This document shows positions 10,638-60,522 of a stretch of 64,000 nucleotides of DNA, in pieces. Made by a program: the position numbers and the translations under genes. Under the pieces are notes generated by a model. That model did no database searches. It was not told the origin of the DNA and saw only the letters and a program-made list of their open reading frames with translations. The number at the start of each line of letters is the position of its first letter. Positions within the stretch are counted from its first letter, which is position 1. The stretch comes from Escherichia coli (GTDB lineage: Bacteria; Pseudomonadota; Gammaproteobacteria; Enterobacterales; Enterobacteriaceae), in the NCBI RefSeq assembly GCF_044324875.1, contig NZ_CP172185.1; one strand, 5' to 3'.

Positions 10638-11306
10638 ATGATTCGCTTTGAACATGTCAGCAAGGCTTATCTCGGTGGGAGACAGGCGCTGCAGGGCGTT
10701 ACGTTCCATATGCAGCCGGGTGAGATGGCGTTTCTGACCGGTCATTCCGGCGCAGGGAAAAGTACCCTCCTGAAGCTGATCTGTGGGATTGAGCGGCCCA
10801 GCGCCGGGAAAATCTGGTTTAGCGGCCATGACATCACGCGTCTGAAAAACCGTGAAGTTCCGTTTCTGCGCCGCCAGATTGGCATGATTTTCCAGGATCA
10901 CCATCTACTGATGGACCGTACTGTCTACGATAACGTGGCGATCCCGCTGATTATCGCTGGTGCCAGCGGTGACGATATTCGTCGCCGGGTGTCGGCGGCA
11001 CTGGATAAAGTCGGGCTACTGGACAAAGCGAAGAACTTCCCTATTCAGCTTTCGGGCGGTGAACAACAGCGTGTTGGCATTGCCCGCGCGGTGGTGAATA
11101 AGCCCGCGGTACTGCTGGCGGACGAACCGACTGGTAACCTGGACGACGCGTTGTCAGAAGGGATTTTACGTCTGTTTGAAGAGTTTAACCGCGTTGGGGT
11201 AACCGTATTGATGGCAACGCACGACATCAACCTGATTTCGCGGCGTTCCTATCGCATGCTCACCCTGAGCGATGGTCACTTGCATGGAGGCGTGGGCCAT
11301 GAATAA
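10638..11306 (+). CDS. ftsE: cell-division ABC ATPase FtsE
   Basis: Walker [10 protein letters not shown], signature LSGGEQQR, Walker [12 protein letters not shown]. Confidence 0.95.
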
Positions 11307-13727: not shown

Positions 13728-14831
13728 ATGAACATGAAGGGTAAAGCGTTACTGGCAGGATGTATCGCGCTGGCATTCAGCAATATGGCTCTGGCAGAAG
13801 ATATTAAAGTCGCGGTCGTGGGCGCAATGTCCGGTCCGGTGGCCCAGTACGGTGACCAGGAGTTTACTGGTGCTGAGCAGGCGGTTGCGGATATCAATGC
13901 TAAAGGTGGTATCAAAGGCAACAAACTGCAAATCGTGAAATATGACGATGCCTGTGACCCGAAACAGGCGGTTGCGGTGGCGAACAAAGTCGTTAACGAC
14001 GGCATTAAATATGTGATTGGTCACCTCTGTTCTTCATCAACGCAGCCAGCGTCAGACATCTATGAAGATGAAGGCATTTTAATGATCACCCCAGCGGCAA
14101 CCGCGCCAGAGCTGACCGCTCGTGGCTATCAGCTGATCCTGCGCACTACCGGCCTGGACTCCGACCAGGGGCCGACGGCGGCGAAATATATTCTTGATAA
14201 AGTGAAACCGCAGCGTATTGCTATCGTCCACGACAAACAGCAATACGGCGAAGGTCTGGCGCGTGCGGTGCAGGACGGCCTGAAGAAAGGCAATGCTAAC
14301 GTGGTGTTCTTTGATGGCATCACCGCCGGGGAAAAAGATTTCTCTACGCTGGTGGCGCGTCTGAAAAAAGAGAATATCGACTTCGTTTACTACGGCGGTT
14401 ATCACCCGGAAATGGGGCAAATCCTGCGTCAGGCACGCGCGGCGGGGCTGAAAACTCAGTTTATGGGGCCGGAAGGCGTGGCTAACGTCTCGCTGTCTAA
14501 CATTGCGGGCGAATCAGCGGAAGGGCTGCTGGTGACCAAGCCGAAGAACTACGATCAGGTTCCGGCGAACAAACCAATTGTTGACGCGATCAAAGCGAAG
14601 AAACAGGACCCAAGCGGCGCGTTCGTCTGGACCACCTACGCCGCGCTGCAATCTTTGCAGGCGGGTCTGAATCAGTCTGACGATCCGGCTGAAATCGCCA
14701 AATACCTGAAAGCGAACTCCGTGGATACGGTGATGGGGCCGCTGACCTGGGATGAGAAAGGCGATCTGAAAGGCTTTGAGTTCGGCGTATTTGACTGGCA
14801 CGCCAACGGCACGGCGACCGATGCGAAGTAA
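13728..14831 (+). CDS. livJ: Leu/Ile/Val-binding periplasmic protein LivJ
   Basis: Start at [16 protein letters not shown] signal peptide within ORF 13629..14831; paralogue of livK. Confidence 0.9.
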
Positions 14832-15837: not shown

Positions 15838-16947
15838 ATGAAACGGAATGCGAAAACTATCATCGCAGGGATGATTGCACTGGCAATTTCACACACCGCT
15901 TTAGCCGACGATATTAAAGTTGCCGTTGTCGGCGCGATGTCCGGTCCGATTGCTCAGTGGGGCGATATGGAATTTAACGGCGCGCGTCAGGCCATTAAAG
16001 ACATTAATGCCAAAGGGGGAATTAAGGGCGATAAGCTGGTGGGCGTGGAATATGACGACGCCTGCGATCCGAAACAAGCCGTTGCGGTCGCCAACAAAAT
16101 CGTTAACGACGGCATTAAATACGTCATCGGCCATCTGTGTTCCTCCTCTACCCAGCCTGCTTCAGATATCTACGAAGACGAAGGTATTCTGATGATCTCG
16201 CCGGGAGCGACCAACCCGGAGCTGACCCAACGCGGTTATCAACACATCATGCGCACTGCCGGGCTGGACTCTTCCCAGGGGCCAACGGCGGCAAAATACA
16301 TTCTTGAGACGGTGAAGCCCCAGCGCATCGCGATCATTCACGACAAACAACAGTATGGTGAAGGGCTGGCGCGTTCGGTGCAGGACGGATTGAAAGCAGC
16401 CAATGCCAACGTCGTTTTCTTCGACGGTATTACCGCCGGGGAGAAAGATTTCTCCGCGCTGATCGCCCGCCTGAAAAAAGAAAACATCGACTTCGTTTAC
16501 TACGGCGGTTACTACCCGGAAATGGGGCAGATGCTGCGCCAGGCCCGTTCCGTTGGCCTGAAAACTCAGTTTATGGGGCCGGAAGGTGTGGGTAATGCGT
16601 CGTTGTCGAATATTGCTGGCGATGCTGCCGAAGGCATGTTGGTCACTATGCCAAAACGCTATGACCAGGATCCGGCAAACCAGGGCATTGTTGATGCGTT
16701 GAAAGCAGACAAGAAAGATCCGTCCGGGCCTTATGTCTGGATCACTTACGCGGCGGTGCAATCTCTGGCGACTGCCCTTGAGCGTACCGGCAGCGATGAG
16801 CCGCTGGCACTGGTGAAAGATTTAAAAGCTAACGGTGCGAACACCGTGATTGGGCCGCTGAACTGGGATGAAAAAGGCGATCTTAAGGGATTTGATTTTG
16901 GTGTCTTCCAGTGGCACGCCGACGGTTCATCCACGGCAGCCAAGTGA
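15838..16947 (+). CDS. livK: leucine-specific binding protein LivK
   Basis: Start at [11 protein letters not shown] signal peptide; ~80% identical to LivJ by eye. Confidence 0.9.
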
Positions 16948-16994: not shown

Positions 16995-17921
16995 ATGTCT
17001 GAGCAGTTTTTGTATTTCTTGCAGCAGATGTTTAACGGCGTCACGCTGGGCAGTACCTACGCGCTGATAGCCATCGGCTACACCATGGTTTACGGCATTA
17101 TCGGCATGATCAACTTCGCCCACGGCGAGGTTTATATGATTGGTAGCTATGTCTCCTTTATGATCATCGCCGCACTGATGATGCTGGGCATTGATACCGG
17201 CTGGCTACTGGTGGCGTCGGGATTCGTCGGCGCAATCGTCATTGCCAGCGCCTACGGCTGGAGTATCGAACGGGTGGCCTATCGCCCGGTGCGTAACTCT
17301 AAGCGCCTGATTGCGCTCATTTCCGCAATCGGCATGTCCATCTTCCTGCAAAACTATGTCAGTCTGACCGAAGGTTCGCGCGACGTGGCGCTGCCCAGTC
17401 TGTTTAACGGTCAGTGGGTGGTGGGCCATAGCGAAAACTTCTCTGCCTCTATTACCACCATGCAGGCGGTGATATGGATTGTTACTTTCCTCGCCATGCT
17501 GGCGCTGACGATTTTCATTCGCTATTCCCGTATGGGGCGCGCCTGCCGTGCCTGCGCGGAAGATCTGAAAATGGCGAGCCTGCTTGGCATCAACACCGAT
17601 CGGGTGATTGCGCTGACCTTTGTGATTGGCGCGGCGATGGCGGCGGTGGCGGGTGTGCTACTCGGTCAGTTCTACGGCGTCATTAACCCCTACATCGGCT
17701 TTATGGCCGGGATGAAAGCCTTTACCGCTGCGGTGCTCGGTGGGATTGGCAGCATTCCGGGAGCGATGATTGGCGGGCTGATCCTGGGGATTGCGGAGGC
17801 GCTCTCTTCTGCCTATCTGAGTACGGAATATAAAGATGTGGTCTCATTCGCCCTGCTGATTCTTGTGTTGCTGGTGATGCCGACCGGTATTCTGGGTCGC
17901 CCGGAGGTAGAGAAAGTATGA
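16995..17921 (+). CDS. livH: branched-chain amino acid ABC permease LivH
   Basis: 308-aa hydrophobic ORF, operon position. Confidence 0.9.
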
Positions 17922-19195
17922 AACCGATGCATATTGCAATGGCGTTGCTCTCTGCCGCGATGTTCTTTGTCCTCGCTGGCGTCTTTATGGGCGTGCAACT
18001 GGAGCTGGATGGCACCAAACTGGTGGTCGACACGGCTTCAGACATCCGTTGGCAGTGGGTGTTTATCGGCACGGCGGTGGTCTTTTTCTTCCAGCTTTTG
18101 CGACCGGCTTTCCAGAAAGGGCTGAAAAGCGTTTCCGGACCGAAGTTTATTCTGCCCGCGATTGATGGCTCCACGGTGAAACAGAAACTGTTCCTCGTGG
18201 CGCTGTTGGTGCTTGCGGTGGCGTGGCCGTTTATGGTTTCACGCGGGACGGTGGATATTGCCACCCTGACCATGATCTACATTATCCTTGGCCTCGGGCT
18301 GAACGTGGTGGTAGGTCTTTCTGGTCTGCTGGTGCTGGGGTACGGCGGCTTTTACGCCATCGGCGCTTACACTTTTGCGCTGCTCAATCACTATTACGGT
18401 CTGGGCTTCTGGACCTGTCTGCCGATTGCCGGGTTAATGGCGGCGGCGGCGGGCTTCCTGCTCGGCTTTCCGGTGCTGCGTCTGCGCGGTGACTATCTGG
18501 CGATCGTTACCCTCGGTTTCGGCGAAATTGTGCGCATATTGCTGCTCAATAACACTGAAATCACTGGTGGCCCGAACGGAATTAGTCAGATCCCGAAACC
18601 GACTTTCTTCGGCCTCGAGTTCAGCCGTACCGCCCGCGAAGGCGGCTGGGACACGTTCAGTAATTTCTTTGGCCTGAAATACGATCCCTCCGATCGCGTT
18701 ATCTTCCTGTACCTGGTGGCGTTGCTGCTGGTGGTATTAAGCCTGTTTGTCATTAACCGCCTGCTGCGGATGCCGCTGGGCCGTGCGTGGGAAGCGTTGC
18801 GTGAAGACGAGATCGCCTGCCGTTCGCTGGGCTTAAGCCCGCGTCGTATCAAGCTGACTGCCTTTACCATTAGCGCTGCGTTTGCCGGTTTTGCCGGAAC
18901 GCTGTTTGCTGCGCGTCAGGGCTTTGTCAGCCCGGAATCCTTCACCTTTGCCGAATCGGCGTTTGTGCTGGCGATAGTGGTGCTTGGCGGTATGGGCTCG
19001 CAATTTGCGGTAATTCTGGCGGCAATTTTGCTGGTGGTGTCGCGCGAATTGATGCGTGATTTCAACGAATACAGCATGTTAATGCTCGGTGGTTTGATGG
19101 TGCTGATGATGATCTGGCGTCCGCAGGGCTTGCTGCCCATGACGCGCCCGCAACTGAAGCTGAAAAACGGCGCAGCGAAAGGAGAGCAGGCATGA
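17918..19195 (+). CDS. livM: branched-chain amino acid ABC permease LivM
   Basis: 425-aa hydrophobic ORF, start overlaps livH stop. Confidence 0.9.
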
Positions 19196-19959
19196 GTCAG
19201 CCATTATTATCCGTTAACGGCCTGATGATGCGCTTCGGCGGCCTGCTGGCGGTGAACAACGTCAATCTTGAACTGTACCCGCAGGAGATCGTCTCGTTAA
19301 TCGGACCTAACGGTGCCGGAAAAACCACGGTCTTCAACTGCCTGACTGGATTCTATAAACCCACCGGCGGCACTATTTTACTGCGCGATCAGCATCTGGA
19401 AGGTTTACCGGGGCAGCAAATTGCCCGCATGGGCGTGGTGCGTACCTTCCAGCATGTGCGTCTGTTCCGTGAAATGACGGTAATTGAAAACCTGCTGGTG
19501 GCACAGCATCAGCAACTGAAAACCGGGCTGTTCTCCGGCCTGTTGAAAACGCCTTCTTTCCGTCGCGCCCAGAGCGAAGCGCTCGACCGCGCCGCTACCT
19601 GGCTTGAGCGCATTGGTTTGCTGGAACATGCCAACCGTCAGGCGAGTAACCTGGCCTATGGTGACCAGCGTCGTCTGGAGATTGCCCGCTGCATGGTGAC
19701 GCAGCCGGAGATTTTAATGCTCGACGAACCTGCGGCAGGTCTTAACCCGAAAGAGACGAAAGAGCTGGATGAGCTGATTGCCGAACTGCGCAATCATCAC
19801 AACACCACTATCTTGTTAATTGAACACGATATGAAGCTGGTGATGGGAATTTCGGACCGAATTTACGTGGTCAATCAGGGGACGCCACTGGCAAACGGTA
19901 CGCCGGAGCAAATCCGTAATAACCCGGACGTGATCCGTGCCTATTTAGGTGAGGCATAA
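19192..19959 (+). CDS. livG: branched-chain amino acid ABC ATPase LivG
   Basis: Walker [10 protein letters not shown], Walker [11 protein letters not shown]. Confidence 0.9.
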
Positions 19960-19960
19960 G

Positions 19961-20674
19961 ATGGAAAAAGTCATGTTGTCCTTTGACAAAGTCAGCGCCC
20001 ACTACGGCAAAATCCAGGCGCTGCATGAGGTGAGCCTGCATATCAATCAGGGCGAGATTGTCACCCTTATTGGCGCGAACGGGGCGGGGAAAACCACCTT
20101 GCTCGGCACATTATGCGGCGACCCGCGCGCCACCAGCGGGCGAATTGTGTTTGATGATAAAGACATTACCGACTGGCAGACGGCGAAAATCATGCGCGAA
20201 GCGGTGGCGATTGTCCCGGAAGGGCGTCGTGTTTTCTCGCGGATGACGGTGGAAGAGAACCTGGCGATGGGCGGTTTTTTTGCTGAACGTGACCAGTTCC
20301 AGGAACGCATAAAGTGGGTGTATGAACTGTTTCCGCGTCTCCATGAACGCCGTGTTCAGCGGGCGGGCACCATGTCCGGCGGTGAGCAGCAGATGCTGGC
20401 GATTGGTCGCGCGCTGATGAGCAACCCGCGTTTATTGTTGCTTGATGAGCCATCGCTCGGTCTTGCGCCGATTATCATCCAGCAAATTTTCGACACCATC
20501 GAGCAGCTGCGTGAGCAGGGGATGACCATCTTCCTCGTCGAGCAGAACGCCAACCAGGCGCTAAAGCTGGCGGATCGCGGCTACGTGCTGGAAAACGGTC
20601 ATGTAGTGCTCTCCGATACCGGCGACGCGCTGCTGGCGAATGAAGCGGTGAGAAGTGCGTATTTAGGCGGGTAA
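19961..20674 (+). CDS. livF: branched-chain amino acid ABC ATPase LivF
   Basis: Walker A GANGAGKTT, LSGGEQQM; start at MEKVMLSF. Confidence 0.9.
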   Translation: MEKVMLSFDKVSAHYGKIQALHEVSLHINQGEIVTLIGANGAGKTTLLGTLCGDPRATSGRIVFDDKDITDWQTAKIMREAVAIVPEGRRVFSRMTVEENLAMGGFFAERDQFQERIKWVYELFPRLHERRVQRAGTMSGGEQQMLAIGRALMSNPRLLLLDEPSLGLAPIIIQQIFDTIEQLREQGMTIFLVEQNANQALKLADRGYVLENGHVVLSDTGDALLANEAVRSAYLGG

Positions 20675-20735
20675 TAACACGTTGATTGATAAGGAGTCAA
20701 AAGACTCCTTTGAGACAGGTTACAAATGTAAAATT

Positions 20736-20835
<100 letters not shown>

Positions 20836-20934
20836 TGAAACGATGAGCAATCTGTAGAGTTTGATTCAGACCTTCTATTTTTCCCGCTTATCCGTGCCCC
20901 ATCTCCCATTTTCCCTCACCCGTACCGTCACCGC

Positions 20935-20990
20935 CTTGTCATCTTTCTGACACCTTACTATCTTACAAATGTAACAAAAAAGTTATTTTT
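20935..20990 (+). promoter_or_regulatory. Pho-box-like region of ugpB promoter
   Basis: CTTGTCATCTTTCTGACACC-type direct repeats ~80-130 bp upstream of ugpB start; matches recalled PhoB-regulated ugp promoter. Confidence 0.45.
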
Positions 20991-21071
20991 CTGTAATTCG
21001 AGCATGTCATGTTACCCCGCGAGCATAAAACGCGTGAATTCGCGCATTCGGTACAACAAGAGAGATAAACG

Positions 21072-22388
21072 ATGAAACCGTTACATTATACAGCTTCAGC
21101 ACTGGCGCTCGGACTGGCGTTAATGGGGAATGCACAGGCAGTGACGACCATTCCGTTCTGGCATTCTATGGAAGGGGAACTGGGTAAAGAGGTGGATTCT
21201 CTGGCCCAACGTTTTAACGCCGAAAACCCGGATTACAAAATTGTACCGACCTATAAAGGCAACTACGAACAGAATTTAAGCGCGGGGATTGCCGCATTTC
21301 GTACCGGCAACGCGCCTGCTATTTTGCAGGTTTATGAAGTTGGCACCGCCACCATGATGGCGTCGAAAGCCATTAAACCAGTATATGACGTGTTTAAAGA
21401 GGCGGGGATTCAGTTCGATGAGTCGCAGTTTGTGCCGACGGTTTCAGGTTACTACTCCGACAGCAAAACCGGCCACTTACTCTCCCAGCCGTTCAACAGC
21501 TCGACTCCCGTTCTCTATTACAACAAAGACGCCTTCAAGAAAGCCGGTTTAGACCCGGAACAGCCGCCGAAAACCTGGCAGGATCTGGCGGACTATGCCG
21601 CGAAACTGAAAGCCTCCGGTATGAAGTGCGGCTACGCCAGCGGCTGGCAGGGCTGGATCCAACTGGAAAACTTTAGCGCCTGGAACGGTCTGCCGTTTGC
21701 CAGCAAAAACAACGGCTTTGACGGCACAGACGCGGTGCTGGAGTTCAACAAGCCGGAGCAGGTGAAACACATCACTATGCTCGAAGAGATGAACAAGAAG
21801 GGCGATTTCAGCTACGTCGGGCGTAAGGATGAATCCACTGAGAAGTTCTATAACGGTGATTGCGCGATGACCACTGCCTCTTCCGGTTCTCTTGCCAACA
21901 TTCGCGAGTACGCCAAATTTAACTACGGCGTAGGCATGATGCCTTACGACGCCGATGCGAAAGATGCACCGCAAAATGCCATTATCGGTGGAGCCAGCCT
22001 GTGGGTAATGCAGGGTAAAGATAAAGAAACTTATACGGGTGTGGCGAAGTTCCTCGACTTCCTCGCGAAGCCAGAAAACGCTGCCGAGTGGCATCAGAAA
22101 ACTGGTTATCTGCCAATCACCAAAGCGGCGTATGACCTGACCCGTGAGCAGGGCTTTTATGAGAAAAACCCAGGGGCGGATACCGCGACGCGTCAGATGC
22201 TGAACAAGCCGCCGTTGCCGTTCACCAAAGGGTTGCGTCTGGGCAATATGCCGCAGATCCGCGTGATTGTGGATGAAGAGCTGGAGAGCGTGTGGACCGG
22301 TAAGAAGACGCCACAGCAGGCGCTGGATACTGCCGTTGAGCGTGGAAATCAGTTGCTGCGCCGTTTTGAGAAATCGACGAAGTCTTAA
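21072..22388 (+). CDS. ugpB: sn-glycerol-3-phosphate periplasmic binding protein UgpB
   Basis: 438 aa with signal peptide, operon position. Confidence 0.9.
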
Positions 22389-22400
22389 TCAGTGTAATGT

Positions 22401-22463
22401 CGGATGCGTTTCGCTTATCTGACCTGGCATCGCGTGTAGGCCGGATAAGCGAAGCGCATCCGG
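22401..22463. repeat. REP element(s) between ugpB and ugpA
   Basis: GTAGGCCGGATAAGCGAAGCGCATCCGGC plus degenerate partner. Confidence 0.8.
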
Positions 22464-22485
22464 CACAGTTCAGGAATTAACCGTA

Positions 22486-23373
22486 ATGTCATCATCCCGT
22501 CCGGTGTTCCGCTCGCGCTGGCTGCCTTATTTGCTGGTCGCGCCGCAGCTCATCATCACCGTTATCTTTTTTATCTGGCCTGCGGGCGAAGCGTTGTGGT
22601 ACTCGCTACAAAGCGTCGATCCGTTTGGTTTCTCCAGCCAGTTTGTCGGCCTGGATAACTTCGTCACGTTGTTTCATGACAGCTACTATCTCGACTCCTT
22701 CTGGACGACGATAAAATTCAGCACCTTTGTCACCGTCAGCGGTTTGCTGGTATCGCTGTTCTTCGCAGCGCTGGTGGAGTACATCGTGCGCGGCAGCCGT
22801 TTATATCAAACCTTAATGCTGCTGCCGTATGCCGTGGCTCCCGCCGTTGCCGCCGTATTATGGATCTTCCTGTTTAACCCCGGTCGCGGGCTGATCAACC
22901 ATTTTCTCGCTGAGTTCGGCTACGACTGGAACCACGCGCAAAACAGCGGTCAGGCGATGTTTCTGGTGGTGTTTGCCTCGGTGTGGAAGCAAATTAGCTA
23001 CAACTTCCTGTTCTTCTATGCCGCGCTGCAATCCATACCCCGTTCGTTGATCGAAGCCGCAGCCATCGACGGTGCAGGCCCGATTCGCCGCTTCTTTAAG
23101 ATTGCGCTGCCGCTTATCGCTCCGGTGAGTTTCTTCCTGCTGGTGGTGAACCTGGTATACGCCTTCTTCGACACCTTCCCGGTGATCGACGCCGCCACGT
23201 CCGGCGGGCCGGTTCAGGCCACCACGACGCTGATTTATAAGATTTACCGCGAAGGCTTTACCGGACTGGATCTGGCTTCGTCTGCCGCGCAGTCGGTGGT
23301 GTTGATGTTCCTCGTCATCGTGCTGACGGTGGTGCAGTTCCGCTATGTTGAAAGCAAGGTGCGTTACCAATGA
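22486..23373 (+). CDS. ugpA: G3P ABC permease UgpA
   Basis: 295-aa membrane protein. Confidence 0.9.
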
Positions 23374-24215
23374 TTGAGAACCGTCCGTGGCTGACAATAT
23401 TCAGCCATACCATGCTGATCCTCGGGATCGCGGTGATCCTCTTCCCGCTGTACGTGGCGTTTGTCGCGGCGACGCTGGATAAACAGGCCGTCTACGCCGC
23501 GCCGATGACGCTCATCCCCGGCACGCATCTGCTGGAAAATATCCACAACATCTGGGTAAACGGGGTAGGTACGAATAGCGCGCCGTTCTGGCGGATGTTG
23601 CTTAACAGCTTTGTGATGGCGTTCAGCATTACGCTCGGCAAAATTACCGTCTCGATGCTCTCGGCATTTGCCATTGTCTGGTTTCGTTTTCCGCTGCGTA
23701 ACCTCTTCTTCTGGATGATTTTTATCACTCTGATGTTGCCGGTTGAAGTGCGTATTTTCCCGACGGTGGAAGTCATCGCCAATCTGAAGATGCTCGACAG
23801 CTACGCCGGCTTAACGCTGCCGCTGATGGCCTCGGCGACCGCCACCTTCCTGTTCCGCCAGTTCTTTATGACGCTGCCGGATGAGCTGGTGGAAGCCGCG
23901 CGGATCGACGGCGCATCACCCATGCGTTTCTTTTGCGACATCGTTTTTCCGCTGTCCAAAACCAATCTGGCGGCGCTGTTTGTGATCACCTTTATCTACG
24001 GCTGGAACCAGTATTTGTGGCCGTTGTTGATTATTACCGATGTGGATCTCGGCACCACCGTGGCAGGGATTAAAGGGATGATCGCCACTGGCGAAGGCAC
24101 CACGGAATGGAACTCGGTGATGGCGGCGATGTTGTTAACGCTGATCCCTCCGGTGGTGATTGTTTTAGTGATGCAGCGTGCCTTCGTGCGCGGCCTGGTC
24201 GATAGTGAGAAATAA
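23370..24215 (+). CDS. ugpE: G3P ABC permease UgpE
   Basis: 281-aa membrane protein, start overlaps ugpA stop. Confidence 0.9.
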
Positions 24216-24216
24216 G

Positions 24217-25287
24217 ATGGCAGGACTGAAATTACAGGCAGTAACCAAAAGCTGGGATGGCAAAACCCAGGTCATTAAACCGCTGACCCTTGATGTGGCG
24301 GATGGCGAATTTATCGTGATGGTCGGGCCGTCTGGCTGCGGGAAATCGACGTTATTGCGAATGGTGGCCGGACTGGAGCGGGTAACGACGGGCGATATCT
24401 GGATCGACCGCAAGCGTGTCACCGAAATGGAGCCGAAAGATCGCGGGATTGCGATGGTGTTCCAGAACTACGCGCTCTATCCGCATATGAGCGTAGAGGA
24501 GAATATGGCGTGGGGGCTGAAAATTCGCGGCATGGGCAAGCAACAAATTGCCGAACGTGTTAAAGAAGCGGCGCGCATTCTGGAGCTGGACGGCCTGCTT
24601 AAGCGCCGCCCGCGTGAGCTATCTGGCGGTCAGCGTCAGCGTGTGGCGATGGGGCGTGCGATTGTGCGTGAGCCGGCAGTGTTCCTGTTTGATGAGCCGC
24701 TCTCTAACCTCGATGCCAAGTTGCGTGTGCAGATGCGTCTTGAACTGCAACAGCTGCACCGTCGCCTGAAAACGACTTCACTCTACGTTACCCACGATCA
24801 GGTTGAGGCGATGACGCTCGCCCAGCGAGTAATGGTGATGAACGGCGGCGTTGCCGAACAGATTGGCACGCCAGTTGAAGTGTACGAAAAGCCCGCCAGC
24901 CTGTTTGTGGCGAGTTTTATCGGCAGTCCGGCGATGAATCTGCTGGCAGGGCGTGTGAATAACGAAGGTACGCATTTCGAACTGGACGGCGGTATCGCGC
25001 TGCCGCTAAACGGTGGCTACCGTCAGTATGCCGGGCGTAAAATGACTCTCGGCATTCGCCCGGAACATATAGCGCTAAGCTCGCAGGCAGAAGGCGGCGT
25101 ACCGCTGGTGATGGACACGCTGGAGATCCTCGGCGCTGATAATCTGGCGCACGGACGCTGGGGCGAACAGAAGCTGGTGGTTCGGCTGGCGCATCAGGAG
25201 CGCCCGACAGCAGGCAGCACGCTGTGGCTGCATCTGCCAGAAAATCAGCTGCATCTTTTTGATGGTGAAACAGGACAACGAGTATGA
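24217..25287 (+). CDS. ugpC: G3P ABC ATPase UgpC
   Basis: Walker [18 protein letters not shown]; start at MAGLKLQAV. Confidence 0.9.
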
Positions 25288-29087: not shown

Positions 29088-29582
29088 TTATGAACAACTG
29101 TCCATGATTTCGTTTAAGAATGAAGAGAAATCACTAAACGAACTGAATATATTTTCGGTGCCAATATTATCTCTAATTTCAAAAAAGTTATTTTTAATGT
29201 CATAAGTAAATATTGAAATGCTATCATCCCCGATCACTAACCGTTCTTGTAGATCAGGGTTTATGAAATCATCATTATTTCTATAAAATTCATTTACGGT
29301 AAAAAGGTTTTTAACTGAAGGTTCTGGAATCGAGAGGCTAAATAATCGTAATCCATTAACTTCGAATCCATCCATTGCTCTTAAAAAAGTAAGATAATCA
29401 GGTTGATTCTTAAAAAGAATACTAACTTCATTACATAACTTCTCCAGGCAATTAGTTGAATTAGAATTAAATTCTATTTGGATTATACTTTCAATAAATG
29501 ATTCCTTGAGCGGTGCTTCAAATGGATAGTCTAAATCATTCATCATTTTTTTTAATTTATTTATTTGGGTTTTAGTCATCAT
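29088..29582 (-). CDS. yrhA: YrhA, putative immunity protein for the YhhZ nuclease toxin (intact in this sequence)
   Basis: 164-aa ORF whose start overlaps the yhhZ stop (ATGA); AT-rich; toxin/immunity-type arrangement. Confidence 0.65.
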   Translation of the reverse strand: MMTKTQINKLKKMMNDLDYPFEAPLKESFIESIIQIEFNSNSTNCLEKLCNEVSILFKNQPDYLTFLRAMDGFEVNGLRLFSLSIPEPSVKNLFTVNEFYRNNDDFINPDLQERLVIGDDSISIFTYDIKNNFFEIRDNIGTENIFSSFSDFSSFLNEIMDSCS

Positions 29583-30757
29583 TTTGTGGGTTCCATAATA
29601 TTTTTCATGGGAGGATAAATTGAGCCAGATGGAATGGCCCAGGGAGTGATTTTGCTTTCACCTACTAATATTCCCTTAGCTATTCGTGATTGCATGTTAG
29701 TAAAAACTTTATGATATGGTTCGTTTTCGATTAATACTAAATTTTCGAAATCATTAGTACCACCATCATCTAGAGATAGTTTATGGTGAACATTATAATT
29801 TAGAGGAACATTGCCCTTTCTCATTCTTAAAAGGTCTTCGGCGTTGAATCTTCCAGATGCTTCGGAGGTTTTTGCAAGTTTGATAAGAAAATTTTTTCTT
29901 ACAGTTTTATTAAACTCCTTTCGTAAGTTAGCTAAGTCTTTTGAAGGTCTCTTAATGTATATTATTTCTATTATGTCTATACCATCAAGAAGTTTTTGTT
30001 GACCTCTAAGTTTGCCTAAATAACTATTTATTTCTGTATATGTATCAACATTAGAACGCTTTGTTAAAAGAATAGATGCTGTTGCTATCGCTATGCCCGC
30101 TGTTTTTTCATTTAGTATTTGATCATAGCCTTTTATTGCATCTCCACCCAGTTTTTCCGCAGTATCTCTGAATCCTTCAATGTTCCCATTGTATACGCCA
30201 CCAGCAGCAAGTAGCCTGCCAATAGCTTTGCTGTTTAACGTTTTGAAACGATTATTTGTTTGGTTTTTTGAATTTGGTAAAAACAAACGGTTATAATTTT
30301 CAGGGAGTGCCAAATAGCTGAACTCGGTATTTGCGATAAGATGTTGACAGAGGATAAATTCATAACTAACAGTTATTGTTTCTGTATCCAGTTGATTTTC
30401 AATGATCTGATGATGAATAGCCGATAAAAAAGCGCCTCTTAGTTGTATATAATAATACTTTTCCCATCTACCAAATCTATTGATTCTATAAAAGTCAAAT
30501 TCCATAAATAATTGCTCATTATTGTTAATGGAATTAATAAGTAATGGAGTGCTTTTATCAATTAATTTACAAAATGTCATACCCTGTAACTGTGAACCAA
30601 GTCCCGTATTAGTAATTCTATTTGCGAGTGAGAATGTAAATATTTCATCCTCATGCCCACTCTGCCAGCGATTACCTATAGATTCAGTAGTCCCACAACC
30701 TGCGGAGATGTTTCCTTGTTGTTCTCCCGTTACTGTCAGGTAAACAATATTACTCAT
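29579..30757 (-). CDS. yhhZ: YhhZ: Hcp-domain protein with C-terminal HNH nuclease motif (Hcp-ET-type putative T6SS effector)
   Basis: N-terminal Hcp-like region; C-terminal NVHHKLSLDDGGTNDFENLVLIENEPYHKV HNH motif; low GC. Confidence 0.75.
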   Translation of the reverse strand: MSNIVYLTVTGEQQGNISAGCGTTESIGNRWQSGHEDEIFTFSLANRITNTGLGSQLQGMTFCKLIDKSTPLLINSINNNEQLFMEFDFYRINRFGRWEKYYYIQLRGAFLSAIHHQIIENQLDTETITVSYEFILCQHLIANTEFSYLALPENYNRLFLPNSKNQTNNRFKTLNSKAIGRLLAAGGVYNGNIEGFRDTAEKLGGDAIKGYDQILNEKTAGIAIATASILLTKRSNVDTYTEINSYLGKLRGQQKLLDGIDIIEIIYIKRPSKDLANLRKEFNKTVRKNFLIKLAKTSEASGRFNAEDLLRMRKGNVPLNYNVHHKLSLDDGGTNDFENLVLIENEPYHKVFTNMQSRIAKGILVGESKITPWAIPSGSIYPPMKNIMEPTK

Positions 30758-30992: not shown

Positions 30993-31481
30993 TTACTTCA
31001 CCCGTGCCATATAATACGCATCGACATATTCACCATTACGTAATGCGTACTTTTTGCCAGTCCCTTCAATCTCAAAGCCGAATTTTTTATAGACCTTAAT
31101 TGCTGGCGCGTTATCGACGAACACCGTTAGCTCAATACGATCTACCCGCAACCAGTTGTCGCACATTTCAATCATCTCTCGCATCAGGGCGCTGGCGACG
31201 CCGTGATTCTTCCAGCGGGCGTCGACACAGATACCAAAATCGGCAACATGACTGCGGCGCGGGCGTTGTTGCACGTCAATGGTGAGATGTCCTACGACGA
31301 TTCCATCAATACAGGCGACTAACTGCTTGATGCCGGGACGATCGGCGAGTCGCTCCTGCCACATATGATCGGAAGGATGAGGCACCTGTAGTGTGTTGCA
31401 ATACACCTCCGGCTGGGCGTGAATCTGCCTGATGGCCTCGTAATCGCGCGTTTCAGCATGGCGTATCACTATCTCACTCAT
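30993..31481 (-). CDS. yhhY: GNAT-family N-acetyltransferase YhhY
   Basis: Start at MSEIVIRHAETRDYEA inside ORF 30993..31559; GNAT motifs. Confidence 0.85.
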   Translation of the reverse strand: MSEIVIRHAETRDYEAIRQIHAQPEVYCNTLQVPHPSDHMWQERLADRPGIKQLVACIDGIVVGHLTIDVQQRPRRSHVADFGICVDARWKNHGVASALMREMIEMCDNWLRVDRIELTVFVDNAPAIKVYKKFGFEIEGTGKKYALRNGEYVDAYYMARVK

Positions 31482-31577
31482 TCCTTTGTCCTCTTTGGGG
31501 TAAATGTCCCTTTCAACATCATTGACTTTCAAATGCGAGTCAAATGCATTTTTTTGCAAAAAGTGTTGGACAAGTGC

Positions 31578-31600
31578 GAATGAGAATGATTATTATTGTC
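31578..31600 (+). promoter_or_regulatory. Fur box overlapping ryhB promoter
   Basis: GAATGAGAATGATTATTATTGTC resembles Fur consensus GATAATGATAATCATTATC, immediately upstream of RyhB +1. Confidence 0.7.
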
Positions 31601-31602
31601 TC

Positions 31603-31692
31603 GCGATCAGGAAGACCCTCGCGGAGAACCTGAAAGCACGACATTGCTCACATTGCTTCCAGTATTACTTAGCCAGCCGGGTGCTGGCTTTT
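31603..31692 (+). ncRNA. ryhB: iron-responsive small RNA RyhB
   Basis: GCGATCAGGAAGACCCTCGCGGAGAACCTGAAAGCACGACATTGCTCACATTGCTTCCAGTATTACTTAGCCAGCCGGGTGCTGGCTTTT matches recalled RyhB sequence; terminator hairpin plus T-run. Confidence 0.9.
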
Positions 31693-31814
31693 TTTTTGAT
31701 CTTTCGTTTTCAATTTATCCACGGGAAGTGCTTGTGTTCGTTATGCGCACTCCAGTAGGAACCACGTCCGCTTTGCGCTAAGGTATAAATAACCACCTTA
31801 AAAAGGACGAAATC

Positions 31815-32852
31815 ATGGTCATCAACTGCGCCTTTATTGGCTTCGGCAAAAGCACCACCCGTTACCATCTGCCGTATGTACTTAACCGCAAGGATAGCTG
31901 GCATGTCGCGCATATTTTTCGCCGCCATGCGAAGCCGGAAGAACAGGCTCCCATTTACTCTCATATCCATTTCACCAGCGATCTCGACGAAGTGCTAAAC
32001 GATCCCGATGTTAAGCTGGTTGTCGTCTGCACCCACGCGGATAGTCATTTCGAATACGCGAAACGCGCGCTGGAAGCCGGGAAAAATGTGCTGGTCGAAA
32101 AACCGTTTACTCCGACAATTGCGCAGGCGAAAGAGCTGTTTGCGCTGGCGAAAAGCAAAGGGCTGACCGTCACGCCGTATCAGAATCGTCGCTTTGATTC
32201 CTGCTTCCTGACGGCGAAAAGAGCGATTGAAAGCGGTAAGCTGGGAGAGATTGTTGAAGTGGAAAGCCATTTTGACTATTACCGCCCGGTGGCAGAAACC
32301 AAACCTGGGTTGCCGCAGGATGGCGCGTTCTATGGCCTTGGTGTGCATACGATGGACCAGATTATTTCTCTGTTCGGTCGCCCGGATCACGTCGCTTATG
32401 ACATCCGCAGCCTGCGCAATAAAGCCAATCCTGACGACACCTTTGAAGCGCAACTGTTTTATGGCGACCTGAAAGCCATCGTCAAAACCAGCCATCTGGT
32501 GAAAATCGATTATCCGAAATTTATCGTTCACGGTAAGAAAGGTTCGTTTATTAAATACGGTATCGACCAGCAGGAAACCAGCCTCAAGGCTAATATTATG
32601 CCGGGCGAACCGGGATTCGCGGCGGATGATTCGGTCGGTGTGCTGGAGTATGTCAATGACGAGGGTGTGACGGTCAGAGAAGAGATGAAGCCGGAGATGG
32701 GCGATTACGGGCGCGTTTATGATGCGTTGTATCAAACCATCACCAACGGTGCGCCAAATTACGTCAAGGAATCTGAAGTTCTTACCAATCTGGAAATCCT
32801 TGAACGAGGATTTGAGCAAGCCTCTCCCTCCACAGTGACTCTCGCGAAGTAA
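31815..32852 (+). CDS. yhhX: Gfo/Idh/MocA-family NAD(P)-dependent oxidoreductase YhhX
   Basis: 345 aa with N-terminal Rossmann motif (INCAFIGFGKS). Confidence 0.85.
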   Translation: MVINCAFIGFGKSTTRYHLPYVLNRKDSWHVAHIFRRHAKPEEQAPIYSHIHFTSDLDEVLNDPDVKLVVVCTHADSHFEYAKRALEAGKNVLVEKPFTPTIAQAKELFALAKSKGLTVTPYQNRRFDSCFLTAKRAIESGKLGEIVEVESHFDYYRPVAETKPGLPQDGAFYGLGVHTMDQIISLFGRPDHVAYDIRSLRNKANPDDTFEAQLFYGDLKAIVKTSHLVKIDYPKFIVHGKKGSFIKYGIDQQETSLKANIMPGEPGFAADDSVGVLEYVNDEGVTVREEMKPEMGDYGRVYDALYQTITNGAPNYVKESEVLTNLEILERGFEQASPSTVTLAK

Positions 32853-48966: not shown

Positions 48967-49671
48967 ATGAAATTCAATCTATCTAATTTATCCGCAGTTT
49001 TACTCGCATCAGGTATGCTGATGTCAACTGTAGTAACCGCTGCGCCAGGCGATGCATCACAATTTGGTGGTGCGGATACAGACTGGAGCACCGTTGATTA
49101 TCCAAAACTCACCGATATGGATAACAACACCGATGCGATGGGCGGAAACATCCGCTTTACTGGTCGTGTGGTTAAAGCGACGTGTAAGGTTGCTACAGAA
49201 TCGAAACAGATTGAAGTGGTACTGCCAGTCGTACCTTCTAACGCTTTCACGGGCATTGATACCGAAGCAACGGGTGCCAGTAACCAGACTGACTTCAACA
49301 TTAAACTGACTGATTGTAGCAATACGGACAGTCAAAATATTGAATTTCGTTTTACTGGCGTAGCAGACGGTGCCAACCAGACGCTTGCCAATGAAGTGGA
49401 AGGAGCTGCTGATGCTGATGGTACTGGCGAAGCGGGAGCTACGGGTGTAGGGATTCGTATTTATTCTAAAAACACGACAACTGATGGCCTGATTAAGCTG
49501 AACACACAAACTCCCCAGGGGAGTAGTTCTTCCGCAGCCTACGTGATTCCTGGCGATGCTGCCACTCATGATTTTACTGCGGCATTTACCGCGGGCTATG
49601 CTCAGAACGGTAGTACCGTTGCACCAGGTCTGGTGAAATCGACGGCAAGTTTCGTCGTGCTGTACGAATAA
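48967..49671 (+). CDS. fimbrial major-subunit-like protein (chaperone-usher pilin), unusually long
   Basis: Signal peptide, Cys pair, C-terminal donor-strand-like FVVLYE; first gene of cluster with RBS AAGGAAAGG. Confidence 0.7.
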   Translation: MKFNLSNLSAVLLASGMLMSTVVTAAPGDASQFGGADTDWSTVDYPKLTDMDNNTDAMGGNIRFTGRVVKATCKVATESKQIEVVLPVVPSNAFTGIDTEATGASNQTDFNIKLTDCSNTDSQNIEFRFTGVADGANQTLANEVEGAADADGTGEAGATGVGIRIYSKNTTTDGLIKLNTQTPQGSSSSAAYVIPGDAATHDFTAAFTAGYAQNGSTVAPGLVKSTASFVVLYE

Positions 49672-49791
49672 TTACAGCAAGATAATTTCAGGTTACAGTT
49701 ACTTGTAACCTGAAATTAATATTACATGTTTATTGTAATAAATAGACACGTATCAGTAATTAAAAATTAGTTTCATCTACAAGGATGCAGT

Positions 49792-50544
49792 ATGAGATGG
49801 ATTTCAAAAAATAAATGTTTTTCGAATAGAAACATTAATTCTTTGCTGAAGACCCAATATGTCATAAGGGCCGGTGCTCTATTTTTACTATCCGCCATAT
49901 CTATCAATGCTATTGCTGCGGGTGGCTTCGGTCTTGGTTCTACGCGTCTGGTTTATCCATCTGACAGTCAGCAAATTACGCTAAGTGTACAGAATGGTGG
50001 GGCTAACACCAGCTATTTAATCCAGTCATGGATTGATGACAATCAAAGCAGTAAAAAAAGTCAGGATTTTGTGGTTACGCCTCCTTTATTTATGTTACCA
50101 ACGCGAAAAGAAGCCTCATTGAGGATAATGTTTATTGGTAAATCACAGTTACCGACTGATCGCGAAACATTATTCTGGATGAATGTGAAAGCGATTCCGC
50201 CAACGGATGAGAAGAATACCCAGAAAAACACGTTACAACTGGCGTTACAAAACAGAATTAAATTATTTTACCGTCCGACTAATTTACCCGTTCAAGCTGG
50301 TAAAGCACGGGATATGCTGCGATTTAAATACGAAGGTAAACAGCTGAGAGTCATTAACCCTTCTCCCTATTATCTGACGGTGACTGGAATCAGGGTGCAA
50401 GGGGCAAAATTACCTAATGCGTTTGTTCCACCGAAAAGTGACGTAACAGTGTCTTCACCAGTGACGTTAGCCGGTGAAATTACTTATCAAACTATCAATG
50501 ATTACGGTGCCACAACGGCCAGGCAAAAGGGAACGTTGCAATAA
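49792..50544 (+). CDS. periplasmic fimbrial chaperone (PapD-like)
   Basis: Motifs TRLVYP, FVVTPPLF, LFWMNVKAIPP, NRIKLFYRP. Confidence 0.85.
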   Translation: MRWISKNKCFSNRNINSLLKTQYVIRAGALFLLSAISINAIAAGGFGLGSTRLVYPSDSQQITLSVQNGGANTSYLIQSWIDDNQSSKKSQDFVVTPPLFMLPTRKEASLRIMFIGKSQLPTDRETLFWMNVKAIPPTDEKNTQKNTLQLALQNRIKLFYRPTNLPVQAGKARDMLRFKYEGKQLRVINPSPYYLTVTGIRVQGAKLPNAFVPPKSDVTVSSPVTLAGEITYQTINDYGATTARQKGTLQ

Positions 50545-50585
50545 ACCTGGAAGATTAGAACGTTAAAGCAACTCAGGTCAGGGAT

Positions 50586-53177
50586 ATGAACCTAAAGCTC
50601 AAAAAACTCGAACACTGGATAGCAAGGCACAAGCAGATGGGACGGAGTATACCGCTCCTGCTCACACTTTTGCCTGCGTGTTCAGTGGCGGGTATGCGCT
50701 TTAACCCTGCATTCCTGTCGGGTGATACAGAAGCTGTTGCTGATTTATCTCGTTTTGAGAAAGGGATGACATATCTACCTGGTAGTTATGAGGTTGAAAT
50801 ATGGGTCAATGATTCGCCTTTGACATCACGTAAGGTTACTTTCAAAGCTGATGAGCAGAATCAGTTGATCCCCTGTTTTTCGCTCGATGAGTTAGTTACT
50901 TTAGGAATTAACAAAAGTGCATTGCCGGAACAGGCGCAAGCAGAGGGAAATAATTGTCTCGATTTACGTATATGGTTCGCAGAAGTTCAATACACTCCTG
51001 AACTGGATGCGCAACGACTCAAACTGACCTTTCCGCAGGCAATATTAAAGCATGAAGCCCGTGGTTATATTCCACCTGAGGAATGGGATAATGGTATCCC
51101 GGCCATTCTTATTAATTATGATTTTTCTGGCAACAGTGATCGTGGAGACTATGCGTCTGATAGTTATTATTTAAATCTCCGTTCAGGTTTAAATTTAGGG
51201 GCGTGGCGTTTTCGCGATTATTCTACATGGAGTCGTTCAGGTAATTCACCGGGTAAAATTGCACATGTGAGTAGTACGTTACAACGAGTAATTATTCCTT
51301 TTAAAAGTGAATTAACACTAGGTGATACCTGGTCTTCATCGGATGTTTTCGACAGTGTGAGTATTCGTGGTGCTAAACTTGAATCCGATGAAAACATGCT
51401 ACCCGATAGCCAAAGTGGTTTTGCCCCCACTGTGCGCGGTATTGCTAAAAGCAATGCTCAGGTAACGATCAAACAAAATGGCTATGTTATTTATCAGACA
51501 TATACTCCACCGGGACCCTTTGAAATCAACGATCTGAACCCTACGTCTTCCGCTGGGGATTTGGAAGTTACGATCAAAGAGTCTGATAATTCCGAAACTA
51601 TCTATACCATTCCTTACGCCGCTGTTCCCATTCTTCAACGCGAAGGGCATATTAAATATTCGGCAACTGCCGGTAAATATCGTAGCAATAGCTATAATCA
51701 AAACAGTCCGAATGTCTTTCAAGGAGATTTGATTTGGGGGTTACCCTGGGATATTACCGCCTACGGAGGGATGCAATACTCAAATAATTATCGGGCAATA
51801 GCACTCGGGCTTGGGTTCAACCTTGGTATGTTTGGTGCGACGTCATTTGATTTAACGCAAGCCAATAGCACGCTTGCCGATGGCAGTAAACATCAAGGGC
51901 AATTGTACCGTTTCCTATATTCAAAATCGTTAGTGCAGACAGGTACGGCTTTTCAGATTATTGGTTATCGCTATTCGACGGAGGGATTTTATTCGTTGAG
52001 TGATACCACATACAAACAAATGTCGGGTACGGTTATCGATCCAGATACCCTTAATGAAAAAGACTATGTTTATAACTGGAATGATTTTTATAATTTACGT
52101 TATAACAAAAGAGGAAAGTTTCAGGCAAATATATCGCAACCATTGGGCGAATATGGCTCTATGTATTTGGCGGCAAGTCAACAAACTTACTGGAATACGA
52201 ATAATAAAGATACCTTGTATCAGGTCGGCTATAATACGAGTGTACATGGGATTTATTTAAATATTGCTTATAATTATAGTAAGTCACCAGGTTCAGATGC
52301 GGACAGAATCTTATCCGTAAATGTCTCATTGCCGATCAGCAATTGGTTATCACTAGCTGTCGATGGGCGTACTGCGACAAATTCTATGACAGCAACTTAT
52401 GGTTATAGTCAGGATAATAGCGGTCATGTAAATCAGTATGCCGGAGTATCTGGATCGCTGCTGGAACAACATAATCTCAACTATAATATTCAACAAAATT
52501 TTGCCAACCAGAATAATGGCGAAAATGGCTCGGTAGGGATAAATTACCGTGGTACATATGGTTCACTAAATTCTGGATACAGCTACGATAATAATGGTAA
52601 CCAGCAATTTAACTATGGTTTAAGTGGTGCCCTGGTTATTCACGAAAATGGTCTCACGTTAAGCCAGCCGTTAGGAGAAACAAATATACTGATAAAAGCA
52701 CCTGGGGCAAACAATGTAAATGTGGAACGCGGAACGGGGGTTAAAACAGACTGGCGTGGCTATGCTGTCGTACCTTATGCCACGGAATATCGGCGTAATA
52801 ATATCTCTTTAGACCCTATGTCTATGAGTATGCATACAGAATTAGATGCTACTACTATGGAAGTGATACCCAGCAAAGGTGCTTTAGTTCGTGCTGAGTT
52901 TAATGCACATGTCGGTATTCGAGGTTTATTTAATGTTCACTATCGTAATAAACCAGTTCCATTTGGTGCGACGGTCAGTGTACCCACTGAGGGGACAACT
53001 CAGATTACAGGAATAGTGGGTGACAGTGGGCAGGTTTATCTCTCCGGTTTGCCTTTACAAGGCATAATAAATATACAGTGGGGAGAAAGTGCTTATCAGC
53101 AATGTCGGGCAAGTTATCAATTACCGAAAAGCGAACTGGATAATGCCATTAGCTATGCAAATCTGGAGTGCCGCTAA
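50586..53177 (+). CDS. outer-membrane fimbrial usher
   Basis: 863 aa, usher-typical size and beta-rich N/Y/S/G content; located after the chaperone gene. Confidence 0.85.
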   Translation: MNLKLKKLEHWIARHKQMGRSIPLLLTLLPACSVAGMRFNPAFLSGDTEAVADLSRFEKGMTYLPGSYEVEIWVNDSPLTSRKVTFKADEQNQLIPCFSLDELVTLGINKSALPEQAQAEGNNCLDLRIWFAEVQYTPELDAQRLKLTFPQAILKHEARGYIPPEEWDNGIPAILINYDFSGNSDRGDYASDSYYLNLRSGLNLGAWRFRDYSTWSRSGNSPGKIAHVSSTLQRVIIPFKSELTLGDTWSSSDVFDSVSIRGAKLESDENMLPDSQSGFAPTVRGIAKSNAQVTIKQNGYVIYQTYTPPGPFEINDLNPTSSAGDLEVTIKESDNSETIYTIPYAAVPILQREGHIKYSATAGKYRSNSYNQNSPNVFQGDLIWGLPWDITAYGGMQYSNNYRAIALGLGFNLGMFGATSFDLTQANSTLADGSKHQGQLYRFLYSKSLVQTGTAFQIIGYRYSTEGFYSLSDTTYKQMSGTVIDPDTLNEKDYVYNWNDFYNLRYNKRGKFQANISQPLGEYGSMYLAASQQTYWNTNNKDTLYQVGYNTSVHGIYLNIAYNYSKSPGSDADRILSVNVSLPISNWLSLAVDGRTATNSMTATYGYSQDNSGHVNQYAGVSGSLLEQHNLNYNIQQNFANQNNGENGSVGINYRGTYGSLNSGYSYDNNGNQQFNYGLSGALVIHENGLTLSQPLGETNILIKAPGANNVNVERGTGVKTDWRGYAVVPYATEYRRNNISLDPMSMSMHTELDATTMEVIPSKGALVRAEFNAHVGIRGLFNVHYRNKPVPFGATVSVPTEGTTQITGIVGDSGQVYLSGLPLQGIINIQWGESAYQQCRASYQLPKSELDNAISYANLECR

Positions 53178-53740
53178 TGAATATATTACAAAAATTTATT
53201 CTATTAATGTTTAGATCATTGTTCATGATGGTGATTTCATATAACGCACTGGCTAACGATACTGTAGTGGTCACATTTACAGGACAATTATTAGCAAAAA
53301 CGTGTGATATTACAACTGGAAGTAAAGACCAGCCAGTAAACATGGGAACTTATGACGTCAATGATTTTTTGAATGTAGGGGATGTTTCTGGCAGCCATAC
53401 ATTTACGATCAATCTGGAAGGATGTCCTACAACAACCAGTACTGTTTATAGTTCAGGAGTAAGTGCTAATGTGCAGTTTACCGGGGATGCTGATGCTATA
53501 AATACCACTTTATTACGCCTTACTTCCAGCGCGGATAGTGCAACTGGAGTGGGCATCGAAATTTTAGACAGTAATGATAAAATTATAGCAATTAATAGTG
53601 AGTCAGGATTCAAAGAGTTAATTTTAAATAATAATGGCGATGCCAGTTTAACCTTTAAACTCCGCTATAAGTCAACTCAGCAAAACGTACATGCGGGACA
53701 GGCGAACGCACTATTGTACTTTGATATAGACTATCAGTGA
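53168..53740 (+). CDS. fimbrial minor subunit
   Basis: ~185 aa, Cys pair (CDIT...CPTT), C-terminal YFDIDYQ. Confidence 0.75.
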   Translation: MPLMNILQKFILLMFRSLFMMVISYNALANDTVVVTFTGQLLAKTCDITTGSKDQPVNMGTYDVNDFLNVGDVSGSHTFTINLEGCPTTTSTVYSSGVSANVQFTGDADAINTTLLRLTSSADSATGVGIEILDSNDKIIAINSESGFKELILNNNGDASLTFKLRYKSTQQNVHAGQANALLYFDIDYQ

Positions 53741-53747
53741 GGTTAAT

Positions 53748-54272
53748 ATGACACGATATTGGAATTTAATTGCCCTATTATTCTCTGTGATATCTATGTC
53801 ATCCATTGCTGATGATACAACACATACAGGTGTTGTACGTATAGAAGGAATCATAACGGCAAAGACTTGTATTGTTGCCGATGAATCTAAAAATTTCACA
53901 GTTAACATGCCTGATGTTCCCAGCTATATGGTGAGAAATTCAGGGAGTGTTACTGAAAAAATTGGTTTCTCTGTAAAGTTAACCCGTTGTGGCAGTGATG
54001 TCAGTCATGCCAATGTCACGTTTGATGGAATACCAGTTAGTGAAGACGCAGCCCTATATAAACTGGAAGAGGGCTCAGTCGATGGGTTAGCACTGGCTAT
54101 TTTTGATAACAACAGACAAAGTATTAGTAATGGTATAAAGAGTACAAGTTATGCCCTTACACCATTGGTAGATAATACATTGCATTTCTCTGCTGCTTAT
54201 AAAGCTATAAAAAATGATGTACAACCAGGAGATGCGAATGCATCAGTTTCCTTTATCGTCACTTATGATTAA
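53748..54272 (+). CDS. fimbrial minor subunit
   Basis: 174 aa, signal peptide, Cys pair, C-terminal SFIVTYD. Confidence 0.75.
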   Translation: MTRYWNLIALLFSVISMSSIADDTTHTGVVRIEGIITAKTCIVADESKNFTVNMPDVPSYMVRNSGSVTEKIGFSVKLTRCGSDVSHANVTFDGIPVSEDAALYKLEEGSVDGLALAIFDNNRQSISNGIKSTSYALTPLVDNTLHFSAAYKAIKNDVQPGDANASVSFIVTYD

Positions 54273-55014
54273 CGTGCTGATATGCATTTTAATATGTTGC
54301 ACAAATGCGCAGGCAGGAGTTGTTGTTGGCGGTACTCGTTTTGTTTACCCAGAAAAGCAGTCATCAATTTCGGTCGAGCTTAAAAATACTGCCAGTAAAG
54401 ATATGCTGGTTAAAATTTCCGTGACACCTGATGATGGACGTCAGTTAAAAGGGACACTGGAATCCCAGCCTTTACTTCCAGATAAGGCGTTTATTGCCAC
54501 ACCACCATTATTGGTACTTAAACAAGATAAAAATACCAAAATAAGAATCAATCGCGTGGGGGGGCAGTTACCTATAGATCGTGAGAGTTTATTTATACTG
54601 AATATTGCAGCGTTACCTGCTCAGGAACAAAACTCACAGCTTAAGAATGAAAATCAACTCCAGGTGGCTGTACGTAATAGGATGAAAATATTTTACCGCC
54701 CAGAGACGTTATCAGGTAATCCACTTGACGCTTATCAACAGTTACGCTGGTCGCGAAAGAATGAAGCTGTCACCGTTTTTAACCCTACGCCCTGGTATGT
54801 GACACTCTATAATTTATCTATTGATGGTAAAAGCATAAATGGTGGCATGGTTGCACCGTTTAGTCATCGCCAACAGGATTGGTGTCAGCGGCAAGGATAT
54901 TGTGAGATTAACTGGCAAACACTAGATCTTTACAATAATGCCTTACCCGTATGGAGCGTAAAATTAAATGTTTTACAAAATAATGTGATGAGTGCAGTAG
55001 CGATACATGGATAA
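54238..55014 (+). CDS. second periplasmic fimbrial chaperone
   Basis: Motifs TRFVYP, FIATPPLL, LFILNIAALPA, NRMKIFYRP; start uncertain (ORF opens at 54214). Confidence 0.8.
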   Translation: MHQFPLSSLMINVLICILICCTNAQAGVVVGGTRFVYPEKQSSISVELKNTASKDMLVKISVTPDDGRQLKGTLESQPLLPDKAFIATPPLLVLKQDKNTKIRINRVGGQLPIDRESLFILNIAALPAQEQNSQLKNENQLQVAVRNRMKIFYRPETLSGNPLDAYQQLRWSRKNEAVTVFNPTPWYVTLYNLSIDGKSINGGMVAPFSHRQQDWCQRQGYCEINWQTLDLYNNALPVWSVKLNVLQNNVMSAVAIHG

Positions 55015-56571: not shown

Positions 56572-57565
<994 letters not shown>

Positions 57566-57643
57566 TCACGGATTGGCATCGAAGTCCGATCAGCGATTCG
57601 CATCCATTCGATCAACCGGGAACTTAACTTTTTCTACCGCTTT

Positions 57644-58399: not shown

Positions 58400-58415
58400 A
58401 CTGTTGTTCCTTCTG

Positions 58416-60169: not shown

Positions 60170-60522
<353 letters not shown>

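Follow-up and report, generated by a model that had tools for sequence, protein, structure and literature searches.

The small RNA RyhB of Escherichia coli K-12 (formerly SraI) is the closest described system to the locus analyzed here. Its gene, ryhB, is repressed by Fur-Fe2+, and upon iron starvation the RNA accumulates and pairs with about 20 mRNAs of iron-using proteins (sodB and sdhC among them), which leads to a translation block and to degradosome-dependent decay (PMC8544716). Hfq binding and the RNase E-dependent decay of targets are known for this RNA (PMC8544716, PMC4509938), whose Hfq-binding module consists of the terminator hairpin, with a reported free energy of –10.7, together with a tail of nine U and a U-rich stretch located 5' of the hairpin (PMC4509938). 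The gene was placed between yhhX and yhhY in a study that also described its Fur site as a 25.2-bit cluster centered at –15 and confirmed by gel shift (PMC2189734). In unstressed cells, approximately 20% of the polymerases continue past the ryhB terminator, termination becomes more efficient under inducing stress, and the co-transcription of ryhB with yhhX has been suspected but never demonstrated (PMC4509938).

The RyhB homologues and paralogues of other gamma-proteobacteria have the same exact pairing core, upstream Fur box, and downstream Rho-independent terminator as the locus described below, and differ from it in their 5' parts, in the lengths of their linkers, and in their terminator stems (GCCAGC, GCCGGC, GCCCGC, and GGGCCAG types). 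Functional analogues of RyhB exist in Pseudomonas aeruginosa, where PrrF1 and PrrF2, encoded by tandem genes, are Fur-repressed small RNAs that, upon iron starvation, lower the mRNAs of sodB, sdh, and further genes for iron proteins; they belong to a separate sequence family with its own Rfam model, and no homology with RyhB is claimed.

Here we analyzed a locus situated in a 64-kb stretch of E. coli DNA (hereafter the window, with all coordinates referring to it). The identity to K-12, the Rfam match, the anatomy of promoter, Fur box, and terminator, the conservation and covariation patterns, and the seed complementarity to sodB were computed for the window, and the statements about the binding of Fur, the dependence on Hfq, the decay by RNase E, and the range of targets were taken from the literature on the identical K-12 sequence.

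Results

Identity of the locus and its genomic context

The first-pass annotation had recognized a RyhB small RNA gene on the plus strand between yhhY and yhhX. When all 4,227 Rfam families were scanned against the window, RF00057 (RyhB) was the sole match that reached gathering level, with 83.1 bits (gathering cut-off, 55; E = 3.6e-14), on the plus strand at 31632–31696 and over model positions 1–67 of 67. Alignment and direct string comparison both gave 95 of 95 identical bases between positions 31603–31697 (+) and ryhB of K-12 MG1655 (b4451; NC_000913.3 3580922–3581016), which is found between yhhX and yhhY on the minus strand of the K-12 numbering, the orientation of the window being the opposite one. 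Mismatches in the conserved pairing core were sought and none were present. The alignment was free of differences (100% identity) from the start codon of yhhY through the promoter, the Fur box, the small RNA, and the terminator, and the sole differences from K-12, two substitutions and one 1-nt indel, fell in the spacer between ryhB and yhhX. The sequence of the expected 90-nt form with a terminator hairpin and a poly-T tail is present as well, 31603–31692 being identical to K-12 and the hairpin and T-run occupying 31671–31697, and the RefSeq annotations of K-12 and of the nearest genome (E. coli strain BEC1-S17-ESBL-09, which shows 100% identity over 501 bp) agree on the location between yhhY and yhhX. 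The coordinates of all features are collected in Table 1.

We consider it practically certain that this locus is the chromosomal ryhB of E. coli, encoding a Fur-repressed, Hfq-dependent, trans-acting small RNA, and no substantive evidence to the contrary emerged. Gene, promoter, Fur box, the neighbors yhhY and yhhX, and Rfam family are all shared with K-12 and, as judged from its sequence, the ryhB of the window is the already known K-12 RyhB itself and no variant, in line with the earlier remark that the locus is not novel.

Table 1 Features of the ryhB locus and its neighbors in the window
Feature	Position	Strand	Remarks
yhhY, GNAT N-acetyltransferase, divergent upstream neighbor	30993..31481	-	RefSeq; Pfam Acetyltransf_1, E = 8e-18
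–35 hexamer TGGACA, ryhB promoter	31567..31572	+	Consensus scan; same in K-12
Fur box GAGAATGATTATTATTGTC	31582..31600	.	Overlaps the –10 hexamer; extends to –3 relative to the start site
–10 hexamer TATTAT, ryhB promoter	31591..31596	+	Ends 7 nt 5' of the K-12 annotated 5' end (31603)
ryhB small RNA gene	31603..31697	+	95 nt per K-12 annotation; 90-nt form = 31603–31692
5' stem-loop (predicted), RyhB nt 1–20	31603..31622	+	Minimum-free-energy fold alone; outside the Rfam model
Invariant 27-nt core GCACGACATTGCTCACATTGCTTCCAG	31636..31662	+	Holds the target-pairing seed
9-nt seed GACAUUGCU, RyhB nt 38–46	31640..31648	+	Complementary to sodB –4 to +5
A/U-rich single-stranded linker UAUUACUU	31663..31670	+	Before the terminator; unpaired in both fold and Rfam consensus
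Rho-independent terminator	31671..31697	+	7-bp GC-rich hairpin 31671–31689; nine T 31689–31697 (terminator scan)
yhhX, Gfo/Idh/MocA oxidoreductase, downstream neighbor	31815..32852	+	RefSeq; Pfam GFO_IDH_MocA N- and C-terminal domains

The window corresponds to the yhhT to rtcA region of E. coli, inverted with respect to the K-12 numbering, and is collinear with BEC1-S17-ESBL-09 at > 99% identity over most of its length. Two stretches near its beginning are not collinear with that genome (1–781, with a 465-base offset near yhhT, and 4622–4738, with a gap of roughly 115 bases close to tusA/zntA), and approximately 3.9 kb (56575–60500, between a fimbrial operon and glpD) are absent from it. This last segment carries an IS21-family pair, composed of an IstA-like ORF with rve and Mu-transposase C-terminal domains (58416–60062, minus strand) and IstB (57644–58642, minus strand), together with an IS110-family transposase ORF (56681–57532, minus strand) that shows a partial match to the DEDD_Tnp_IS110 profile and may be truncated. 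The fimbrial operon itself, a seven-gene chaperone-usher system in the glgP-glpD interval (around 48967–56161), is collinear with the nearest genome and annotated there (17350–24544 of its segment). A livJ/livK paralogue pair (13755–14809 and 15865–16925, about 75% DNA identity) is expected and ordinary. At 29088–30757, adjoining yhhY, yhhZ (annotated as tssD) encodes a protein of 392 aa, in which an Hcp domain is extended by a long C-terminal part, and is followed by an uninterrupted yrhA, a gene that is split by IS1E in K-12 and intact in the window; the two look like an orphan Hcp-effector and immunity pair.

Promoter, Fur box, and anatomy of the RNA

The ryhB promoter (31567–31596) is sigma-70-like, with 10 of 12 consensus matches and an 18-nt spacer, and it was the only promoter-like site that the consensus scan returned on either strand within 31300–31950. 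A minus-strand yhhY promoter that would share the Fur box was looked for in the same interval and none was found at the scan thresholds. The AT-rich palindrome over the promoter, previously noted as resembling a Fur box, proved to be a 19-bp site (GAGAATGATTATTATTGTC) that overlaps the –10 hexamer and has 16 of its 19 positions in agreement with the consensus GATAATGATAATCATTATC. It is unique in the 64-kb window as a site with ≤ 3 mismatches, 0.01 such sites being expected by chance (shuffles). The K-12 site, for which Fur binding was shown by gel shift (PMC2189734), has the identical sequence.

The transcript region starts at 31603 (GCGATCAGG...), and its 27-nt core has zero mismatches to the Rfam consensus. 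The terminator is formed by AGCCAGCCGGGTGCTGGCT followed by the T-run. By analogy with the Hfq module described in PMC4509938, the linker that precedes the terminator is presumed to be the internal part of the Hfq-binding module. The fold of the whole molecule was no more stable than that of shuffled sequences (z = –0.67), which is to be expected for a small RNA with a single-stranded seed; structure by itself would therefore not have flagged the locus, and fold stability was not used as evidence.

Complementarity to sodB

The seed GACAUUGCU is the exact Watson-Crick complement of AGCAAUGUC in sodB of K-12, across the start codon; the target sequence was taken from K-12, the sodB of the source strain lying outside the window. 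Among 5,000 shuffled versions of RyhB, only 28 contained a 9-nt complement to the region from –25 to +15 of sodB. A full-length comparison with RNAduplex (RyhB vs. sodB –60 to +30) was discarded, as it returned an over-extended duplex of 69 nt that is biologically meaningless and whose energy was reached by 13 of 1,000 shuffles. The over-extension arises because the method ignores intramolecular structure, and the exact-seed test was used instead.

An altered seed was encountered in E. coli 23AR0151 (sputum, clinical, New Zealand; NZ_CP195448.1 310630–311078), where a 9-nt tandem expansion inside RyhB results in three copies of ACATTGCTC vs. the normal imperfect two, in the part that corresponds to window positions 31636–31662. 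The expansion suggests replication slippage on an internal direct repeat.

Conservation within E. coli and annotation of the locus

A 141-bp segment containing the locus was present in all but two of the 5,426 complete E. coli genomes and was ≥ 99% identical in 5,394 of these 5,424, while a 501-bp segment extending into yhhY and yhhX reached ≥ 99% identity in just 587 genomes. The difference between the two counts indicates that the RNA gene is more tightly constrained than the neighboring sequence, and ryhB appears to be more strongly conserved than its flanks.

The first-pass annotation had also pointed out that an RNA gene of this kind would be missed by ORF-only annotation, and the public records bear this out. 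In 12 RefSeq records taken from different ranks of the genome list, the PGAP annotation leaves the 141-bp locus without any feature, as it does in the nearest genome, the one record that was inspected in full, and K-12 MG1655 was the only inspected record that carries an ncRNA feature at ryhB.

Homologous loci in other gamma-proteobacteria

Other species have at least 120 loci in which the 27-nt core is unchanged, and the taxa that bear it among the matches listed are Enterobacterales, Aeromonas, Photobacterium, Aliivibrio, Zobellella, and Salinivibrio. For the analysis of flanking signals we considered 116 instances, i.e., the window and 115 loci of other species that had enough flanking sequence among the matches listed. 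Within 50 nt upstream of the expected start, 92% of these instances had a Fur-box match of ≥ 14/19, vs. 0.26% of shuffles, and a T-run of ≥ 5 followed the core in 111 of the 116.

Across 44 distinct sequences, the middle pair of the terminator stem was A-U in 31, C-G in nine, and G-C in four, with no broken pairs, and two further terminator pairs also showed double changes. The terminator stem is maintained via compensatory changes. Since the set was chosen by an exact core match, the stem-loop of the core cannot vary in it, and the terminator result alone is informative. In some Photobacterium and Salinivibrio, the first T-run that follows the core does not mark a terminator, and so these RyhB copies are evidently longer.

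Homologues of yhhX or yhhY were located at 51 of the 120 other-species loci among the matches listed, most of these 51 having a divergent yhhY as neighbor (e.g., in Yersinia, Serratia, Pantoea, Hafnia, and Rahnella), and a downstream yhhX was limited, among the matches listed, to closer relatives. Many homologous loci lack yhhX or yhhY, unlike E. coli.

Multiple copies were seen in several genera. Salinivibrio costicola has two RyhB cores in tandem on the same strand, about 300 nt apart (record coordinates 10920–11253), and two unlinked copies occur in Yersinia, Photorhabdus, Serratia, Pantoea, Pectobacterium, Hafnia, Mixta, and Acerihabitans. In the two-copy genera usually one copy alone adjoins yhhY.

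Relation to yhhX and overlapping reading frames

The same strand carries yhhX 117 nt past the T-run, and no second sigma-70-like promoter was found in 31300–31950. Together with the documented read-through of the terminator (PMC4509938), this arrangement would also fit a stretch that is mainly a Fur-controlled 5' leader of yhhX, in which read-through expresses yhhX and the terminator acts as an attenuator. However, the core, the Fur box, and the terminator are kept in many species that have no downstream yhhX, and among Enterobacteriaceae where yhhX is present the spacer measures anything between 39 and 1,429 nt, which means that the coupling is not conserved. Moreover, inducing stress is reported to enhance termination, and 3'-extended forms of the RNA lose Hfq binding (PMC4509938). 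We regard the leader as an improbable account of the locus and, given the variable spacer and the many homologous loci without yhhX, rejected it as the main explanation; a leader role would at most be additional to the function as a small RNA, not a replacement for it. In the window, the spacer (31698–31814) contains a second, weak terminator-like hairpin at 31720–31736 with a poor T-tail.

The mechanical list of reading frames contains two that overlap ryhB, one of 61 aa with a TTG start (31596–31781) and another of 84 aa (31504–31758), and the conserved sequence could accordingly be suspected of encoding a small protein. Both of them, however, cross the terminator hairpin and the T-run into a spacer whose sequence and length both differ among species, and the longer one begins upstream of the ryhB promoter. 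The pattern of conservation, an invariant 27-nt block with co-varying stem arms and length-variable linkers, is not codon-periodic, and no CDS is annotated over ryhB in K-12 or in the nearest genome. A coding role is thus highly improbable, and it was ruled out on the grounds that the frames run through the terminator into non-conserved spacer. That the locus is a chance resemblance, or a decayed and non-functional remnant of ryhB, is more improbable still. Nothing was found in favor of this reading, and it is refuted by the Rfam match (E = 3.6e-14), by a sequence that agrees fully (100%) with the functional K-12 gene and its promoter, Fur box, and terminator, and by a Fur box expected 0.01 times by chance.

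Discussion

With ryhB as by far the best reading of the locus, we infer from the identity of its sequence that the gene is probably expressed and regulated in the source strain as it is in K-12, and on the same grounds Fur binding, Hfq binding, and the decay of targets would be expected to take place there. When iron is plentiful, Fe2+-Fur would occupy the Fur box over the –10 hexamer and block the transcription of ryhB. When iron becomes scarce, Fur would leave the site and RNA polymerase would make an RNA of about 90 nt that ends at the hairpin/U-tail terminator. Hfq would be bound by the U-tail together with the hairpin and the U-rich stretch before it. The single-stranded core would then pair with mRNAs of non-essential iron proteins (e.g., sodB and sdhC) at their ribosome-binding regions, and the pairing would lead to a translation block and to decay by the RNase E degradosome, by which iron would be spared.

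The reach of the Fur-controlled region may go beyond the small RNA, as it could also place yhhX (by read-through of the terminator) and the divergent yhhY under iron control. We put this forward as a tentative idea that is, on balance, rather unlikely. The Fur cluster lies approximately 100 nt upstream of yhhY, which is divergent and widely syntenic, and a literature search returned no paper addressing yhhY. If the idea were true, two poorly characterized enzymes would be tied to the iron-starvation response.

The significance of the locus as such is confined to annotation hygiene and to the orientation of the region. As ryhB is unannotated in the complete non-K-12 E. coli genomes that were inspected, surveys based on ORFs or on RefSeq features miss this regulator. 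For the source strain, an intact and canonical ryhB implies that it should have a normal iron-sparing response.
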